Shown here piece after piece: positions 16,779-24,323 of a stretch of 24,323 nt of DNA (the first letter of the stretch is position 1; each line of letters starts with the position of its first letter). This DNA is from a virus (lineage: Duplodnaviria > Heunggongvirae > Uroviricota > Caudoviricetes): positions 1 to 24,323 of IMG/VR virus record IMGVR_UViG_2645727563_000003. The stretch is one strand, 5' to 3'. The translations under genes and the position numbers were made by a program. The notes beneath the pieces are model-generated. The model saw only the letters and a list, made by a program, of their open reading frames with translations, did not search any database and was not told the DNA's origin.

Positions 16779-17390
16779 TCAAAGAGAAAAGCTAAAGCCC
16801 AGAAGGGAAGCCAAAGAACTTGAGGATTGGTTAAACGTGCTGTGCAATGCGAAGGTCATTGGGAATGACTTAAATTCAGTAACCTGATCTCGCGCATAGG
16901 TGACATCGCCGGTAGTGACCGGGAATACCGTCATCTCATTTTCCAGTTTGGTTAAGCCGGAAGACAGCAACCGATAAATACGCACATTGAGCAAATATTT
17001 AGACGGTATATTCCCGGTACCGTCCGGATTGATCACCCGACTTTTTGCCGTCTTAAACCAGTCCAAAACGAGGCCATCAACGGTATCCCTGACCATCATT
17101 GTTATCTGCCCAGGCGAACGCTCCGTTGGTTGAAGGATATTCCCTCCGCCGATTTTAATCGTTTCATATTCGATGCTGTAATCGTGGTAGGTAATATCTT
17201 TGGCAAAGAAGTCTGCCCCCTCCAGTCCATCAACTTCGACAGAGAACTGCCATCCTTGCGCGAACAGCATTTTGTTCATGATGATTGACGTCAGCTTACC
17301 AACTTCCCGTTCACCAACGCCGGAGCCAAATAATGTCGTCGTTAATGCCGAAGATACATAAGACTTTACTGAAGCAACATTAAACCCCAT
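16779..17390 (-). CDS. Putative tail tube protein (Tub position by synteny)
   Basis: 203-aa ORF upstream of the chaperone-position gene and tape measure; assignment by order and size. Confidence 0.5.
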   Translation of the reverse strand: MGFNVASVKSYVSSALTTTLFGSGVGEREVGKLTSIIMNKMLFAQGWQFSVEVDGLEGADFFAKDITYHDYSIEYETIKIGGGNILQPTERSPGQITMMVRDTVDGLVLDWFKTAKSRVINPDGTGNIPSKYLLNVRIYRLLSSGLTKLENEMTVFPVTTGDVTYARDQVTEFKSFPMTFALHSTFNQSSSSLASLLGFSFSL

Positions 17391-17400
17391 ATCAGCCCCC

Positions 17401-18008
<608 letters not shown>

Positions 18009-18047
18009 TTGTCATTTGTGACAGTATGCTCGCAATCGTAGTGATTA

Positions 18048-18587
18048 CTACCACCAACTGCTAGCTTTCTTCTCTCTAGCTTTTCCTTCGCTTTGCAGTA
18101 AATCTTTACTTCCTGTAGAAATATTTCTATTTGCATCAGCCTCAGACTGAATTACATCTGTCTTAGCTGCTCTCTCCTTCAACTCCTGCTCTATAAAATC
18201 GTTTTCTCGCTGGACACGAGCCGCTTTTGCTTGCAGTTCGAGTTTCATGCTTTCGAGTTGCAGCTTGCGAAGCTCATCCTCATAAGCTTGATCTCGCTTC
18301 TTGTCATTTGCTAGCTCGGCTTCTCGTTTCGCTCTACGTTCATTTTCTGCAGCAACACGCTGTTTTTCGCGTGCAGCAGCGGCAGATGCTGCTTTTTCTC
18401 TTCTAATACGTTCAGCTTGTGCTTGTTGGCGAATAAGTTCTTTTCTGGCATCCTCAGCTTGCTGCTCTTTAGCTCGCCCTTCATTTTCCGCTTGAGCAAT
18501 AGCAGCAATTTGACTTTGCAACGAGTTAGCCAAGGCAGTGCCTACACTAAACGTAGAAAAGATTAGAAATAAAATAATTTTATTCAT
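18048..18587 (-). CDS. Secreted, highly charged coiled-coil protein (TolA-like repeat character)
   Basis: 179-aa ORF; signal peptide MNKIILFLIFSTFSVGTALA then Ala/Glu/Lys/Arg/Gln-rich helix. Visibly lower GC than the tail genes. Confidence 0.65.
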   Translation of the reverse strand: MNKIILFLIFSTFSVGTALANSLQSQIAAIAQAENEGRAKEQQAEDARKELIRQQAQAERIRREKAASAAAAREKQRVAAENERRAKREAELANDKKRDQAYEDELRKLQLESMKLELQAKAARVQRENDFIEQELKERAAKTDVIQSEADANRNISTGSKDLLQSEGKAREKKASSWW

Positions 18588-18590
18588 AAA

Positions 18591-19112
18591 TTATTTCTTT
18601 TCTGGACAAGTAGCATTTGGCTGAATTCGAGTTTCATTATCTTTAGTTGAAATAAGCACAGCAAGCCCCGTTGTAAACTGGCATGCTTTACCAACTTGAG
18701 TTGAAGTGAACACCTTAGTTCCTTCTTTATAAGTCAGTGAAACACCTTCAACAATTGTTTTATCACTAACCAAAGAACCAGCCGCTGCACCAAGAGCCGC
18801 ACCACCAGTACCGCCAGCTACAGCACCCAGTGTCGATGTGCCTTTAACATTATAACCGGCAACGCCCCCAGCAACAGCTCCCAGTACCGCACCAAATGTC
18901 TGTGCCGCTTCTTTATTAGCTTTATTATCAACTTTCACTTTAGCTGGAAGCACAGAGATAATATTGACTGTCTTTGTTTCCTGCTTCGAATTCAATTGAG
19001 CGGTATCATAAACATCGGCAGCATAATCAGCACCGCTAGATTGACACCCAGAAAGAAGAATTGCAGATACAACAAGAGCGCATAAAGTATACTTTTTAGA
19101 CATAAGAATCAT
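18591..19112 (-). CDS. Lipoprotein with glycine-zipper motif
   Basis: 173-aa ORF; lipobox LSGC after a hydrophobic leader, then GAVLGAVAGGVAGY...GAVAGGTGGAALGAAAGS. Start may be the ATG at 19103 instead. Low GC. Confidence 0.65.
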   Translation of the reverse strand: MILMSKKYTLCALVVSAILLSGCQSSGADYAADVYDTAQLNSKQETKTVNIISVLPAKVKVDNKANKEAAQTFGAVLGAVAGGVAGYNVKGTSTLGAVAGGTGGAALGAAAGSLVSDKTIVEGVSLTYKEGTKVFTSTQVGKACQFTTGLAVLISTKDNETRIQPNATCPEKK

Positions 19113-19393
19113 CCCAGAAAAACAAAAACCGGCGAGAAGTTACCACGAGAACGGAAAGTAAACAAGAATACTCCCATTGACTTATATCAATTAATCAACT
19201 TTTTATAAGCTATCCCTAACTTATTGTGTATAGCTGAAAAGTCAGAGACAAGTTCACCATCTGCATTATTTCTTAAGTTAATAGTTTATTGCTAACTTAA
19301 TTTATGTATCGACTATTGATATCCATCTTAAAGTTACAATATCCCTCTGCATTATTTTTCATCACAAATAATATATCTATTGCACGACACTAA

Positions 19394-19410
19394 TCTGCTC
19401 TAATAAATTT
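19394..19410 (+). promoter_or_regulatory. C1-type repressor operator candidate upstream of the c4/icd/ant unit
   Basis: tctgctctaataaattt matches the recalled P1 C1 operator consensus ATTGCTCTAATAAATTT at 15/17. Confidence 0.55.
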
Positions 19411-19448
19411 GTATTTTTAAGTCGCGAATGCTATCTTTTTGCATCATA

Positions 19449-19477
19449 TTGACCTTTTAATCGTTCAGGCTTATAGT
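19449..19477 (+). promoter_or_regulatory. Sigma70-like promoter candidate for the c4/icd/ant transcript
   Basis: TTGACC (19449-19454), 17-bp spacer, TATAGT (19472-19477), in an AT-rich intergenic region. Confidence 0.4.
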
Positions 19478-19589
19478 TTCGCCGTCGTAGCAAATTCTGC
19501 GACCGGGTTTAGCAGCCTGAATGATTGTGCGGACAGCCGCAGATATCCGATATTGCGGTATTTTTGTGTCCGTAAAACCGCGTTACGCC

Positions 19590-19700
19590 CAAATTATGGT
19601 GGGGCGTGATGGGGAGGCTTCGGCCTGCTGGTTTCACAATCGCCAGTCTGCTAACCCCGTCACGTCCTGCCACCTGTTTAGCAGCGGGTAGCAGGTTGTT
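19590..19700 (+). ncRNA. c4: Candidate c4-like antisense regulatory RNA in the ant leader
   Basis: About 450 nt of GC-rich non-coding leader with stem-loops; ctgctaa (19648-19654) is complementary to gtttagcagc, present at 19487-19496 and 19677-19686. Boundaries approximate. Confidence 0.35.
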
Positions 19701-19724
19701 AAACCTGATTGTGAGGCCGTAACT

Positions 19725-19946
19725 ATGGTTAATGCCAATCCTTGCGCACGCCAAGAATTCATCTGGCGTTTCTATTCCTGCAAAAAACACCACTATCACT
19801 TCGTCATCGCAGCAACAGAAGACGAAGCACGCTCTCAATTGCCTGATGGCCCCTGCATTTTTACTGCCCGTTTTTCAACTAACTCGCGCAATTCACTTAG
19901 TTACTGGAACCTCCCCTTCTCTGCCGACGTTCAGGGGGTTTTATGA
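19725..19946 (+). CDS. icd: Small ORF translationally coupled to ant1 (icd-like position)
   Basis: 73-aa ORF, GAGG about 9 nt upstream; its TGA overlaps the ant1 ATG (ATGA at 19943-19946). Identity by position only. Confidence 0.4.
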   Translation: MVNANPCARQEFIWRFYSCKKHHYHFVIAATEDEARSQLPDGPCIFTARFSTNSRNSLSYWNLPFSADVQGVL

Positions 19947-20986
19947 AAAAACCTCTCGTCACCCGTAATGACATAGCCGAAGCGATCGCCCTGCATACTG
20001 CCTGTATGCCGACACGGGAGATCCCCGGCGCAATTGCCAACTATTTCATGATAACCAGACGTTTTTATACCCGAACAGATAAGGCTGTGATCAACAGGCT
20101 ACTGATAGCCGAGATCAGGGATTATTTGATTGAACAAGGACGTCTACGTTACGCAACGGTGGCAGCAGAAATGAGAAAGGAGGCACATAGAATGACCAGT
20201 AATAATTTGAATGTTAAAAAACCAGCATCTGTTGCTTCAGCTACGCCATCACCAGCTGTGAATGTTATCTCCAACACTGGAGACACAATCGACAGCCAGA
20301 CGCTGTTAAAGATGGTCAATGAAGCGCGTAAGTTATGTGGGGAACCAGAGGTTCGGAACAACAAATTCATCAAAAAAATACTCGACGAATTAGAAGGTGA
20401 GGACGGTTACACAAAAAGTGCAACCGTGCCGCCAGGTGGCGGTACGCCTATGGTTGTCATAACCATGACCTACAAACAAGCCCTGCGAGTCGCCGCGCGC
20501 GAGTCAAAAGCAGTCCGCCGTTCGCTGATCGACAAACTGGAAGAATTGCAGCAGGCAAACTCCCCTGCCCCATCGATCCCCCAAACATTACCAGACGCTC
20601 TACGCCTGGCTGCCGAGTTGGCAGAACAGAAAATGCAGTTGGAACAACAGCTGGTGGCCGCAGCCCCTAAAGTCGATTTTGCCGACCGGGTATCAGCGGC
20701 TAATGGAATCCTGATCGGGAACTTTGCAAAGGTCGTTGGACTTAAGCAAAACGCCCTTTTCTCATGGTTGCGCCAGAACGGCATTCTCATGGCTTTTGGT
20801 GCGCGCAAAAACGTACCGCGCCAGCAGTACATTAACGCCGGGTATTTCACGGTGAAAGAAGTGGTGCTGGATGATGAAAATGGCTACCAGATACGGCTGA
20901 CGCCCCAATTAACGGGTAAAGGCCAGCAGTGGTTAACTCGCAAGCTACTTGATGCTGGTTTGTTAAAACCAGTAGCAATAGGTTAA
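19943..20986 (+). CDS. ant1: Antirepressor Ant1 (long form) with KilA-C/ANT-type C-terminal domain
   Basis: 347-aa ORF; the C-terminal ~125 aa are ~65% identical to the C-terminus of the next gene (ALRLAAELAEQK...TGKGQQWL...LLDAG). Confidence 0.7.
   Translation: MKKPLVTRNDIAEAIALHTACMPTREIPGAIANYFMITRRFYTRTDKAVINRLLIAEIRDYLIEQGRLRYATVAAEMRKEAHRMTSNNLNVKKPASVASATPSPAVNVISNTGDTIDSQTLLKMVNEARKLCGEPEVRNNKFIKKILDELEGEDGYTKSATVPPGGGTPMVVITMTYKQALRVAARESKAVRRSLIDKLEELQQANSPAPSIPQTLPDALRLAAELAEQKMQLEQQLVAAAPKVDFADRVSAANGILIGNFAKVVGLKQNALFSWLRQNGILMAFGARKNVPRQQYINAGYFTVKEVVLDDENGYQIRLTPQLTGKGQQWLTRKLLDAGLLKPVAIG
20192..20986 (+). CDS. ant2: Antirepressor Ant2 (in-frame internal start within ant1)
   Basis: In-frame ATG at 20192 preceded by AAGGAGG (20177-20183) with 8-nt spacer; would give a 264-aa product starting MTSNNLNVKK. 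Confidence 0.5.
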   Translation: MTSNNLNVKKPASVASATPSPAVNVISNTGDTIDSQTLLKMVNEARKLCGEPEVRNNKFIKKILDELEGEDGYTKSATVPPGGGTPMVVITMTYKQALRVAARESKAVRRSLIDKLEELQQANSPAPSIPQTLPDALRLAAELAEQKMQLEQQLVAAAPKVDFADRVSAANGILIGNFAKVVGLKQNALFSWLRQNGILMAFGARKNVPRQQYINAGYFTVKEVVLDDENGYQIRLTPQLTGKGQQWLTRKLLDAGLLKPVAIG

Positions 20987-20998
20987 CAAAAGAAAAAA

Positions 20999-21023
20999 CC
21001 TGCCAGCAAACTGGCAGGTTTCT
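20999..21023 (+). terminator. Rho-independent terminator after ant
   Basis: cctgccag-caaa-ctggcagg followed by tttct, 13 nt after the ant stop. Confidence 0.7.
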
Positions 21024-21979: not shown

Positions 21980-22825
21980 ATGCTGGCTAAAGTCACTTTC
22001 CTGAGCTGTATAACGATGAGCGATTTTACTTTTTCTGGCTATGAATTGGCCTGCTTTGTAACACACTCCGGTCTATCCCGTAGCGCCGGGCATATCCTGT
22101 CGCAATGTGCAAATCTCGCGGCAACAACCAGTGAATACTTCATTCACAAGCCTCACCGCATGATCGCGGCAGAAACTGGTTATAGCCAATCAACCGTCGT
22201 TCGTGCATTCCGTGAAGCTGTAAACAAAGGAATTCTGTCTGTAGAGATTGTTATCGGCGATCACCGTGAACGTCGCGCTAACCTGTACCGGTTTACACCA
22301 TCCTTTTTGGCCTTCGCACAACAAGCCAAAAATGCGCTGATTGAAAGCAAATTAAAGATCTCTTCAGCGGCAACCAAGGTTAAAGCTGTTCTCGCTAAGA
22401 CATTGGCTTTATTTAATTTTTTATCCACACCCCCATGTCAAAATGATACCCCCTCCCCCTGTCAGGATGACGTGGCAATAAAGAATAAGAAGTCACAAGT
22501 TAAAAAAACAAAAAGATCAGTTTCCGGCGGTGCCGGAACGACCAGACTCAAAAAATTGACTTCATGGATCGCTGAGGCAAAAGCAAAGGCTGACAATCTG
22601 CGGTTATCCAAAAAGCGCGCTCAAAAACATGAGTTCAAGCAGAAGGTAGAGGCGGCAGCGCGGAAATATGCTTACCTGAAGAACAAGCGTTCTCCTGATA
22701 TTGGCGGGGTATCAAACTTCGATAATCTGCCGCATTGCATGACGGTAAACGAAGCTCTTAATGCGGTATTAGCCAAAAATAAAGATAACGAACAATGGGG
22801 TATACCGGTAGGATTCAGAGGGTGA
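21980..22825 (+). CDS. repL: HTH DNA-binding protein, RepL-like (lytic replication initiator position)
   Basis: 281-aa ORF, 30 nt after kilA stop; HTH-like MIAAETGYSQSTVVRAFREAVNKGILS; basic C-terminus. Alternative start ATG 22016 (MSDFTF...); neither has a clear SD. Confidence 0.6.
   Translation: MLAKVTFLSCITMSDFTFSGYELACFVTHSGLSRSAGHILSQCANLAATTSEYFIHKPHRMIAAETGYSQSTVVRAFREAVNKGILSVEIVIGDHRERRANLYRFTPSFLAFAQQAKNALIESKLKISSAATKVKAVLAKTLALFNFLSTPPCQNDTPSPCQDDVAIKNKKSQVKKTKRSVSGGAGTTRLKKLTSWIAEAKAKADNLRLSKKRAQKHEFKQKVEAAARKYAYLKNKRSPDIGGVSNFDNLPHCMTVNEALNAVLAKNKDNEQWGIPVGFRG
22429..22470. repeat. C-tract direct repeats with flanking A-rich tract inside the repL-like gene; candidate origin element
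   Basis: acccccatgtcaaaatga and ccccctgtcaggatga are adjacent imperfect direct repeats, followed by an A-rich tract at about 22490-22515. Confidence 0.3.
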
Positions 22826-22828
22826 TAG

Positions 22829-22845
22829 ATTGCTCTAATTATAAC
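22829..22845 (+). promoter_or_regulatory. Weaker C1-operator-like half match upstream of the AT-rich operon
   Basis: attgctctaattataac matches the first 11 consensus positions exactly (12/17 overall); lies 3 nt after the repL-like stop. Confidence 0.35.
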
Positions 22846-22993
22846 CATGCATACTTTCAACACCTCTAGTTTGCCATGAGGAAAACTCATAGGCGTCCTG
22901 GTAAGATGACGTAGTTAGCAAATCAGAACGTCCCATTATTGCAATTAATAAACAACTAACGGACAATTCTACCTAACAATAAGTGGAGTTAAC

Positions 22994-23698
22994 ATGTTGA
23001 ACCGAAGAACATTTAATGTATTCTGCGATGAATCCTGTCACCTACTAAATGATCATAATAAAGTCATGGTATTGGGTGCGCTTTGGTGTCCTGGCACTAT
23101 CACAAAAAAAATTGCTAGAGACATCAAGGGATTAAAATTAAAACACAATTTAAAACCTGATTTCGAAATCAAGTGGACTAAAGTATCTGCGTCCAAAGTT
23201 GAATTTTACTTAGAGGTCGTAGATTACTTCTTCAGCAACCCAGCATTGCGCTTTAGAGGTGTTGTTGTTCCTGATAAAGAGCAACTGGACCATGCTCGAT
23301 TCCATCAAGATCACAATACTTTCTATTATAAGATGTTTTTTTATGTCTTAAAAAACATAATAGAAAGTAACAACACATACAATATCTACCTAGATATAAA
23401 AGATACTTTAGGTATTGAAAAAATTGAGAAATTAAGAGGAGTTCTTCACAATGATCGCTATGATTACAATCATGAGTCGATAAACAGAATTCAACATATA
23501 CGATCTCATGAAGTGCAACAATTGCAGCTAACGGATCTTTTCATTGGTGCGTTAGGCTACGTTCATCGAGGAATGAATAGCAACGCGGGAAAAATCCAAG
23601 TCATAAACAGGATAAAATCACATACAAACAGGGAGTTACTAAAAAGCACTCTTCCAACAGAAAGTAAATTTAATATTTTCGTGTGGGAGGCTCGCTGA
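22994..23698 (+). CDS. Hypothetical protein, possibly DUF3800-like (N-terminal FCDES motif), first gene of AT-rich operon
   Basis: 234-aa ORF, AAGTGGAG upstream of ATG. AT-rich codons unlike flanking genes. Motifs NVFCDESCH, EIKW, SHEVQQLQLTDLFIGALGY; family assignment from memory only. Confidence 0.7.
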   Translation: MLNRRTFNVFCDESCHLLNDHNKVMVLGALWCPGTITKKIARDIKGLKLKHNLKPDFEIKWTKVSASKVEFYLEVVDYFFSNPALRFRGVVVPDKEQLDHARFHQDHNTFYYKMFFYVLKNIIESNNTYNIYLDIKDTLGIEKIEKLRGVLHNDRYDYNHESINRIQHIRSHEVQQLQLTDLFIGALGYVHRGMNSNAGKIQVINRIKSHTNRELLKSTLPTESKFNIFVWEAR

Positions 23699-24162
23699 TG
23701 CTTCAAATGCCAGATTTATTGTACTTCAATGGAAGTTGGCAAGAGTATATAGACGATGTATATGATGTTGTTAGAGAAGATATTTTAATCTCTAATATAA
23801 CGTTTAAGGGTCTCCCTGTTCGATTACGTTATTCACCGGAATATGATGGGAAAGAGTTCGGATTTTGGCATTTAGTATCAGAGGGAAAAATAGAAGAAGA
23901 ACGAATACCTGATCTTGAACGGTGTAAGCGGATCCGCTGGATCGCGCATATGATAAGGAATTATGACCATTGCGATATATCATGTTGGTCTGAAAGACGA
24001 GGACCAACTGAAGAGTGGGTAATCTGGAACGAGTGTGAAAACTACGTTGTTGTGCTATCCGCACGTAGAGACTATTGGCTTCTCAAAACAGCCTATGTTG
24101 TAACCTATGACAGTAAAATCAGAACACTCAAACAAAGCAGAAAAAGAGCACTTGGGACATAA
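23698..24162 (+). CDS. Hypothetical protein, second gene of AT-rich operon
   Basis: Start ATG 23698 overlaps the upstream stop (TGATG), GGGAGG 8 nt upstream; the track's longer ORF begins at GTG 23683. 154 aa, Cys/His cluster CKRIRWIAHMIRNYDHCDISCW, no family recognised. Confidence 0.65.
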   Translation: MLQMPDLLYFNGSWQEYIDDVYDVVREDILISNITFKGLPVRLRYSPEYDGKEFGFWHLVSEGKIEEERIPDLERCKRIRWIAHMIRNYDHCDISCWSERRGPTEEWVIWNECENYVVVLSARRDYWLLKTAYVVTYDSKIRTLKQSRKRALGT

Positions 24163-24170
24163 AAAAGCTG

Positions 24171-24200
24171 AACCCGACACATATTGCTATGTATCGGGTT
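24171..24200 (+). terminator. Hairpin after the AT-rich operon (weak terminator candidate)
   Basis: aacccgaca - 12-nt loop - tatcgggtt, 9 nt after the stop; no clear T-run follows. Confidence 0.3.
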
Positions 24201-24323
24201 CGATCGCTCTTTCTACGCATGGTAGATGAGTAAGGTAAATCTAACCGATCTACTTTAGCTTTTCAATAGCTAGCTATAACTTTCCGCACATATTCTTCTG
24301 ATAATTCCAGTATGGCGGTTGGG

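Follow-up and report, generated by a model that had tools for sequence, protein, structure and literature searches.

A two-gene cassette resembling the envelope operon yfgH-yfgI at the sim position of a P1/P7-like phage-plasmid

What does a P1-like phage-plasmid carry at the place where P1 itself carries the genes simC-simB-simA, and does the replacement keep other phages out or does it serve the lysogen in another way? This question is raised by two neighbouring genes at positions 18048-19112 of a 24,323-nt stretch of viral DNA (IMG/VR record IMGVR_UViG_2645727563_000003, positions 1 to 24,323; the whole stretch is hereafter the window), which derives from a P1/P7-like phage-plasmid (Punavirus). 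An initial annotation, made from the letters of the window, had described the pair as a glycine-zipper lipoprotein and a secreted, highly charged coiled-coil protein at the sim position, and had proposed an envelope-acting exclusion or fitness module. Judged by sequence comparison, the locus is a two-gene cargo cassette, a diverged and mobile version of yfgH-yfgI, an envelope operon of proteobacteria. The role of the pair may be lysogenic conversion that hardens the outer membrane of the lysogen, a proposal to which we give about the same chance of being right as of being wrong. The cassette, its genes and its borders are as follows.

18020-19395, minus strand: substitution cassette, 1376 bp, 40.3% GC, delimited by blastn breakpoints against P1; replaces simC-simB-simA
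18591-19112, minus strand: yfgH-like gene (P7 upf50.5), 173 aa; open reading frame (ORF) identified by its identity to P7
18048-18587, minus strand: yfgI-like gene (P7 upf50.0), 179 aa; ORF with a match to PF17358
19113-19395, minus strand: AT-rich leader, 283 bp, 31.4% GC, with a presumed promoter of its own
17999-18018, minus strand: late promoter LPsit of the pmgC-tub-pmgB-sit tail operon (P7 annotation, L001:4000-4019, and P1 annotation)
19394-19410, plus strand: C1 repressor operator Oc4 (Op51) (P7 annotation, L001:5395-5411, offset +13999, and P1 annotation)

The window is collinear with P7 (L001) throughout at 97% identity in blastn, and its positions 17000-21000 match P7, SJ46, RCS47, JL22 and several 'P1' isolates over the full length at ~98%, whereas canonical P1 covers just 66% of the same region. 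The alignment with P1 (L002) breaks at window positions 18019/18020 and 19395/19396 (blastn), and the P1 counterpart, L002:2520-4032, carries simC-simB-simA at the same interval and on the same strand between LPsit and Oc4. LPsit forms the left edge of the cassette, P1 homology being back at 18019, and Oc4 (minus-strand reading, AAATTTATTAGAGCAGA), which governs the divergent c4-icd-ant operon, forms the right edge. The cassette breakpoints thus coincide with the P1 simCBA segment, and the sim position assigned at the outset is correct. The two genes are separated by 3 nt, are co-stranded with pmgC-tub-pmgB-sit and lie directly 5' of that operon on the minus strand, where the initial annotation had placed them relative to the tail block. 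They are also, as it had stated, poorer in GC than their neighbours, with 42.0% and 43.5% for the two genes compared with 46.9% for pmgC and 49.5% for ant1; the leader has 31.4%, the window as a whole 46.8%, and the 40.3% of the cassette falls at the 4.5th percentile among equal-sized windows.

The product of the yfgH-like gene is 100% identical to Upf50.5 of P7 and 67% identical to YfgH of Escherichia coli K-12 (E 6e-73). A lipobox, L-S-G-C23, closes its signal sequence and is followed by Gln at +2 (...SAILLSG-C23-QS; a rule-based call); each of 40 homologues has Cys23, and the +2 residue is not Asp, in line with the outer-membrane sorting rule. Gly/Ala-rich zipper helices occupy residues ~64-113, the zipper glycines G74, G78, G82, G104 and G108 are invariant in the homologue alignment, and the C-terminal beta domain, with two invariant Cys, is conserved with K-12 YfgH. 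With both the lipobox Cys23 and the zipper helices in place, the protein is rightly described as a glycine-zipper lipoprotein. The Pfam glycine-zipper, Rick_17kDa_Anti and TraT matches of the window protein are all sub-threshold; Rick_17kDa_Anti and Gly-zipper matches were found in many of its homologues. Because homologues of 170-172 aa align from the second Met, the true start is probably the second ATG at 19103, which would give a protein of 170 aa.

To what family does this lipoprotein belong? A profile of 40 YfgH-like proteins matched SlyB (PDB 7OJF/7OJG) over its full length with an E value of 1.3e-9, residues 9-162 of the profile aligning with SlyB 6-153 at 24% identity. The AlphaFold2 monomer, with helices at residues 64-88 and 94-113, is of low confidence (pLDDT 53), and the Foldseek search with this model returned 7ojf_A (SlyB) as its top hit and sole significant match (E 2.9e-6, probability 1.00, TM 0.50/0.59). 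Both proteins have the same order of elements, namely a lipid anchor, a beta segment, two glycine-zipper helices and a beta domain. On the basis of these comparisons the window protein is assigned to the SlyB-family glycine-zipper outer-membrane lipoproteins. SlyB is PhoPQ-regulated and forms rings around outer-membrane proteins and lipid nanodomains (7OJF/7OJG).

The second protein is 100% identical to P7 Upf50.0 and 47% identical to K-12 YfgI, and it matches DUF5384 (PF17358) with 147.8 bits against a cutoff of 25 (E 3e-43) over profile positions 4-145 of 145. Its signal peptide ends in ALA, with N as the first mature residue, and the P7 annotation lists a 20-aa sig_peptide; the mature part of 159 aa is 41% charged and Pro-free. 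The AlphaFold2 model is one continuous helix from residue 3 to residue 178 (pLDDT 88), which at 0.15 nm per residue along the helix would make a rod of ~24 nm, a predicted length sufficient to span the periplasm. Residues 31-100 have very few hydrophobic positions and resemble a charged single helix, while the C-terminal half is amphipathic and the chain ends in -WW. Since the model is a single continuous helix and residues 31-100 are too hydrophobic-poor for a classical coiled coil, a coiled coil is not established; the earlier description of a secreted, highly charged coiled-coil protein therefore stands as regards export, charge and an all-helical build, but not as regards the coiled coil. 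In the alignment of YfgI proteins three regions can be distinguished: a conserved N-terminal motif after the signal peptide, a variable middle, and a conserved C-terminal half with an aromatic end. YfgI lengths range from 148 to 199 aa, the middle being variable and both ends conserved, as expected of a spacer or ruler.

Both proteins thus have their counterparts in one host operon. Chromosomal yfgH-yfgI is present beside guaA in 5420 of 5426 complete E. coli genomes, and its DNA identity to the window pair is ~69%. Gene order, protein lengths, lipobox, zipper and signal peptide are shared between the two. In contrast to the K-12 operon, the phage copies end in -WW, reside on phage-plasmids, at prophage ends or in islands rich in insertion sequences (IS) and not beside guaA, and have unrelated upstream regulatory DNA; the most diverged parts are the hairpin tip of the lipoprotein (~residues 87-98) and the N-terminal half of YfgI. 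In 59 of 59 DUF5384-encoding species genomes from Gamma-, Beta- and Alphaproteobacteria, including Enterobacterales, Pseudomonas, Haemophilus, Photobacterium, Tolumonas, Nitrosomonas and several Alphaproteobacteria, a yfgH-like gene immediately precedes the DUF5384 gene and is co-stranded with it (in 56 the gap passed an automatic filter; in the remaining 3 the stop-to-stop ORFs, also co-stranded, overlap), and this gene order marks YfgI as an obligate partner of YfgH. SlyB is not known to have a DUF5384 partner gene.

What is known of the host proteins points to the outer membrane. K-12 YfgH is located in the outer membrane, is induced on depletion of LpxC, LptD or BamA, and is required for tolerance to sodium dodecyl sulfate/ethylenediaminetetraacetic acid (SDS/EDTA); its overexpression rescues knockdowns of outer-membrane biogenesis genes, its SlyB-like rings are AlphaFold3 models, and the suppressors of yfgH and slyB mutants differ, being clsA and Mla, respectively (bioRxiv 10.64898/2025.12.22.696046). 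The same preprint makes no mention of yfgI. A yfgI mutant is sensitive to nalidixic acid (PMC3536626), and SdiA controls the operon, there named srgIL, in Salmonella Typhi (PMC11619404). The initial annotation had named, as a finding that would count against an exclusion module, clear homology to housekeeping envelope proteins combined with no effect on phage infection; of these two parts, it is the homology that was found (67% to YfgH, 47% to YfgI).

The genes themselves were already known. They were annotated in 2003 as P7 upf50.0 and upf50.5 (AF503408) with the same homology inference, namely a likeness to E. coli K-12 genes for putative membrane proteins and lipoproteins, their function being given as unknown, and the sim variable region has been published. 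The P7 genes and those of the window are the same element, with 100% protein identity and an unchanged place and direction between tubA/pmgC and Op(c4), and the same genes occur in SJ46, RCS47, JL22, phi456 and 168 PLSDB plasmids. NCBIfam gave no meaningful match for the pair. In the literature search, no paper was found that mentions DUF5384, upf50.0 or upf50.5, and none that ties SlyB-like lipoproteins to prophage exclusion.

Several database records name the pair differently. In GenBank OR339795 (phi456) it is labelled 'minor tail protein' and 'tail tip protein', and the YfgH-like family carries the label 'DNA methyltransferase' in phrog_1277 and from there in the RefSeq records NC_050152, NC_031129, NC_042128 and NC_019445. 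Both the methyltransferase and the tail labels are wrong. A lytic or structural role, as a spanin-like pair, a tail component or a DNA methyltransferase, could draw on these labels, on the position 5' of the tail operon, and on a superficial likeness to two-component spanins, which combine a lipoprotein with a long periplasmic helix. However, in the non-phage contexts the homologues form chromosomal operons, in 59 cases out of 59. Instead of an inner-membrane anchor, the helical protein carries a short, cleavable signal peptide with an AXA site, and the lipoprotein is encoded first, neither of which fits a spanin pair; neither a methyltransferase motif nor a methyltransferase Pfam match was seen in the 173-aa glycine-zipper lipoprotein. 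Moreover, the late promoter LPsit follows the cassette instead of preceding it, the lysis genes are elsewhere, and P1 can grow lytically without the genes of this slot (PMC10695390). Homology and context effectively refute a role of this kind, which we regard as extremely improbable.

How did a host envelope operon come to lie on a phage-plasmid, and has it been kept there? The phage copies form a separate lineage under strong purifying selection. Phage YfgI clusters with eight relatives, all of which end in -WW, whereas guaA-linked proteins end in -WF(N/K) (49 of 50 bootstraps). In E. coli, prophages with P2-like tails that are integrated between yecD and yecE have members of this lineage at their extreme end, next to tail-fibre and DUF4376 genes; a related prophage that occupies the same attachment site is without the pair, and a Salmonella prophage has it at the same position. 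The closest relatives (92% and 78%) sit in IS-rich or AlpA-type E. coli islands. Among the lineage members compared, synonymous divergence (dS) is saturated and the ratio of nonsynonymous to synonymous divergence (dN/dS) is ~0.05-0.06, and the GC content at third codon positions (GC3) is 0.23-0.31 in the lineage compared with 0.43-0.50 for K-12. In the search for a donor species, no species-representative genome had a YfgI above 59% identity.

Phage TL-2011b was considered as a third type of carrier and rejected, since the match is to host chromosome inside the prophage record. The last ~3.5 kb of this record (L013, NC_019445, 5252-8785) are E. coli chromosome with the genes yfgI-yfgH-yfgG-pdeF; the match is 99% identical to K-12 guaA-yfgI-yfgH-yfgG-pdeF, and 179 of 179 residues of YfgI are the same; the TL-2011b prophage apparently sits beside the host yfgHI locus.

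The sim position was then considered as a slot. P1-like phage-plasmids vary in the sim region, which has been designated 'variable region 4' and is a recombination hot spot of low GC (PMC9603915), and simABC is dispensable for P1 lytic growth (PMC10695390). Among 628 PLSDB plasmids matching the flanks, the yfgHI cassette is present in 168, in all of them at full length, with at least 99% identity and with both ORFs intact; simCB is present in 137, and a third cassette, encoding two secreted proteins of 158 and 215 aa, is complete in 81, so that the yfgHI type is the commonest of the three cassette types counted in the slot. Both proteins of the third cassette (L004:926-2101) have signal peptides and belong to phrog_3429 and phrog_3933. 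A fourth cassette (L005:4722-6975) has four genes, including one for an SH3-domain membrane protein, and every alternative cassette of the slot encodes exported or membrane proteins. As simABC is dispensable, the region is variable and all alternative cassettes encode such proteins, the slot is one that holds non-essential cargo. At least four unrelated cassettes for exported proteins occupy it, and for one of them exclusion is an established function.

Two further observations concern the slot. P1 SimA (52 aa; L002:3803-3961) has ~36 residues identical to the N-terminus of the 215-aa protein of the third cassette (L004:1454-2101), and on account of this identity simA looks like a truncated remnant of an older cassette displaced by sim. 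In addition, some cassette-bearing plasmids have IS insertions within the pmgC-to-icd interval (NZ_CP123268 and CP057430; ISKpn26-like, IS5 family, and IS3 family).

The cassette might be nothing but neutral hitch-hiking DNA, a piece of chromosome or island captured recently. Its low GC and its place in a known recombination hot spot (PMC9603915) are in keeping with this, as are its closest relatives in IS-flanked islands, and plasmid copies that are at least 99% identical are compatible with a single recent capture. Neutral cargo, however, is hard to reconcile with ORFs that are both intact and full length in 168 of 168 plasmids, in what is the commonest of the three counted cassette types, or with the strong purifying selection across the mobile lineage. 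Unrelated prophages carry the pair independently, and the breakpoints lie exactly at regulatory landmarks with both flanking control elements kept. We therefore consider neutral hitch-hiking improbable. The low dN/dS, the plasmid copies of at least 99% identity, the distinct lineage and the recurrence in prophages and islands together suggest that the mobile copy has been selected for.

Selected for what? The neighbourhood raises exclusion as a possible answer. Sim is exported and is reported to stop a superinfecting phage from delivering its DNA to the cytoplasm (references cited in PMC8546580). Sim and the pair share the slot, the strand, the flanking control elements and exported non-essential products; they differ in gene number, Sim is without a lipoprotein, and an exclusion phenotype is known for Sim alone. 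The initial annotation had seen no obvious resemblance to Sim, and this holds for SimC, the protein for which the alignment was run: the best BLASTP E values are 0.044 and 5.0, from chance segments of 10-38 residues, SimA and SimB not having been compared pairwise. The Sim proteins and the window proteins belong to different PHROG families.

The pair could nevertheless be a dedicated superinfection- or surface-exclusion module that functionally replaces Sim, with YfgH-like rings and the YfgI-like rod blocking tail-tube penetration or DNA transit and possibly affecting conjugation and colicins too. The exact positional swap for simCBA between LPsit and Oc4 would fit such a module, as would the exported or membrane proteins of all alternative slot cassettes. 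The prophage copies adjoin tail-fibre genes at the prophage end, and exclusion lipoproteins such as Cor sit at the tail-fibre end in other phages. A diverged and constrained mobile lineage beside an intact host copy likewise fits a new function, and blocked DNA delivery has a reported precedent in Sim (references cited in PMC8546580). Further support comes from TraT, a ring-forming, helix-inserted outer-membrane lipoprotein of chromosomal origin that was co-opted for exclusion (PMC11733297), for which weak signals were obtained with the window lipoprotein (Pfam E 7e-5, Foldseek rank 3).

These TraT signals are, however, sub-threshold, with a Pfam score of 23.1 bits against a cutoff of 31 and a Foldseek match to 9fsm_A at E 0.22 (TM 0.25/0.19), and the profile search against the PDB at E<=1 returned no TraT chain. 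TraT (PF05818; PDB 9FSM) was retained as an analogy: the lipoprotein of the pair has in common with it a predicted helix-inserted ring in the outer membrane and a chromosomal gene family that mobile elements have co-opted (PMC11733297). TraT differs in being ~70 residues longer, in having an extracellular ring domain and in having no helical partner. Exclusion is further weakened by the lack of similarity to SimC, and searches of PADLOC-DB found no family at E<=0.01 for either protein. No sign of diversifying selection was seen (dN/dS ~0.05; plasmid copies at least 99% identical). In those parts of the tables that were covered from the large phage-resistance screens of Mutalik et al. 2020 (PMC7553319), yfgH and yfgI of the host had only sub-threshold CRISPR interference (CRISPRi) scores and were not seen for Dub-seq; this result is weak evidence, as the tables were covered in part and the host paralogue and not the phage copy was assayed there. 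Taken together, we regard a dedicated exclusion module as unlikely, though with a probability that has to be taken seriously.

A broader form of the same idea appears to us rather more doubtful still: the -WW YfgH/YfgI lineage would be a housekeeping operon repeatedly co-opted by temperate phages as an entry barrier, made of a SlyB-like ring and the ~24-nm rod and interchangeable with Sim, a case comparable to the co-option of TraT by plasmids. If it were true, alternative and mechanistically unrelated exclusion systems would replace one another as cassettes at the sim slot.

Envelope lipoproteins are a familiar form of prophage cargo. Lambda Bor, phi80/N15 Cor and T5 Llp are prophage 'moron' envelope lipoproteins, with which the window protein shares small size, an outer-membrane lipoprotein nature, low GC, the status of non-essential temperate-phage cargo and, putatively, a promoter of its own. 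It differs from them in belonging to a two-gene operon with a housekeeping host paralogue, and no Pfam or PHROG match to the Bor, Cor or Llp families was returned.

We favour lysogenic conversion over these alternatives and envisage it as follows. The pair would be transcribed from its own AT-rich leader, divergent from the C1-controlled c4-icd-ant operon, and because this leader lies outside the C1-controlled promoter and points away from it, expression in the lysogen would be expected. The two genes, to judge from the 3-nt gap between them, are translationally coupled. The first product would receive its lipid at Cys23 and be delivered to the outer membrane, as suggested by the lipobox, the Gln at +2 and the experimental location of K-12 YfgH, and its two glycine-zipper helices may insert as a hairpin and, by homology with SlyB, form rings around lipid and porin nanodomains. 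The second product would be exported as a helical rod of ~24 nm whose C-terminal half and aromatic end probably touch YfgH or the outer membrane. The net effect would be an outer membrane hardened against detergent, bile, chelator or peptide stress, with lower entry of foreign phage or DNA as a possible side effect. With respect to the proposed exclusion or fitness module, both products are indeed predicted to be exported envelope proteins, and it is the fitness half that homology supports better.

Several points weigh against a hardening role. Given that 5420 of 5426 E. coli genomes already have yfgHI, the benefit of a simple extra dose is not obvious; that the mobile lineage is long diverged yet strongly constrained suggests a specialised role. 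The sole sigma-70-like site in the leader is weak, and such sites are no commoner there than in shuffled sequence; the leader is also unconserved in the lineage, the upstream regions of five family members giving no convincing alignment. The AlphaFold2 monomer of the lipoprotein is of low confidence (pLDDT 53), the contact between YfgH and YfgI is a prediction, and so is ring formation even for K-12 YfgH (bioRxiv 10.64898/2025.12.22.696046). Finally, a slot shared with a known exclusion gene favours the exclusion alternative. What is at stake is a candidate envelope-hardening operon in 168 of 628 (about a quarter) of the P1-like phage-plasmids in PLSDB, many of which come from E. coli and Salmonella of clinical or livestock origin; the designation follows from the recent demonstration that host YfgH stabilises the outer membrane.

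How the cassette might be expressed can be considered from its leader and from the control elements around it. The candidate sigma-70 site in the leader has its -35 element at 19379-19374 and its -10 element at 19356-19351, with 9 of 12 positions matched; no sigma-E or SdiA box was seen in the leader by eye. The leader also contains a 15-nt direct repeat, AAATAATGCAGAKGG (minus strand), at 19257-19271 and 19343-19357, the copies being 86 bp apart. Each copy includes the -10-like motif AATAAT, and the repeat could represent two tandem promoters or the binding site of a regulator. The neighbouring features are the following.

17401-17967, minus strand: pmgC (P7 tubA), the first tail-operon gene downstream of the cassette (ORF, P1/P7 annotation)
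17968-18014, minus strand: stem-loop with a 13-bp perfect stem, an inverted repeat between the yfgI-like stop codon and pmgC
19592-19677, plus strand: C4 antisense RNA gene (Rfam RF01695, 69.6 bits, E 5.9e-13), part of the immI immunity operon on the right-hand side of the cassette

The stem-loop overlaps LPsit and lies in sequence shared with P1. The 91-nt region that contains it folds with -29.8 kcal/mol (z = -6.0), a value matched by 0 of 200 shuffles, and it could be a terminator or attenuator of cassette transcripts, or a leader structure. On the other side of the cassette, positions 19471-19523 hold the c4-a1b1 element. Rfam also gave a match to isrK, a small RNA (sRNA) that binds Hfq, at 19484-19565; the match stays below the gathering score (43.7 bits against 50) and shares positions with the c4 a1/b1 target element upstream of C4. 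The part of the window with the lowest GC is not the cassette but positions ~22100-24323, where values go down to 0.367 per 1376 bp; this part spans the end of repL and P7 rapA/rapB (rlfA/rlfB in P1), another published variable region.

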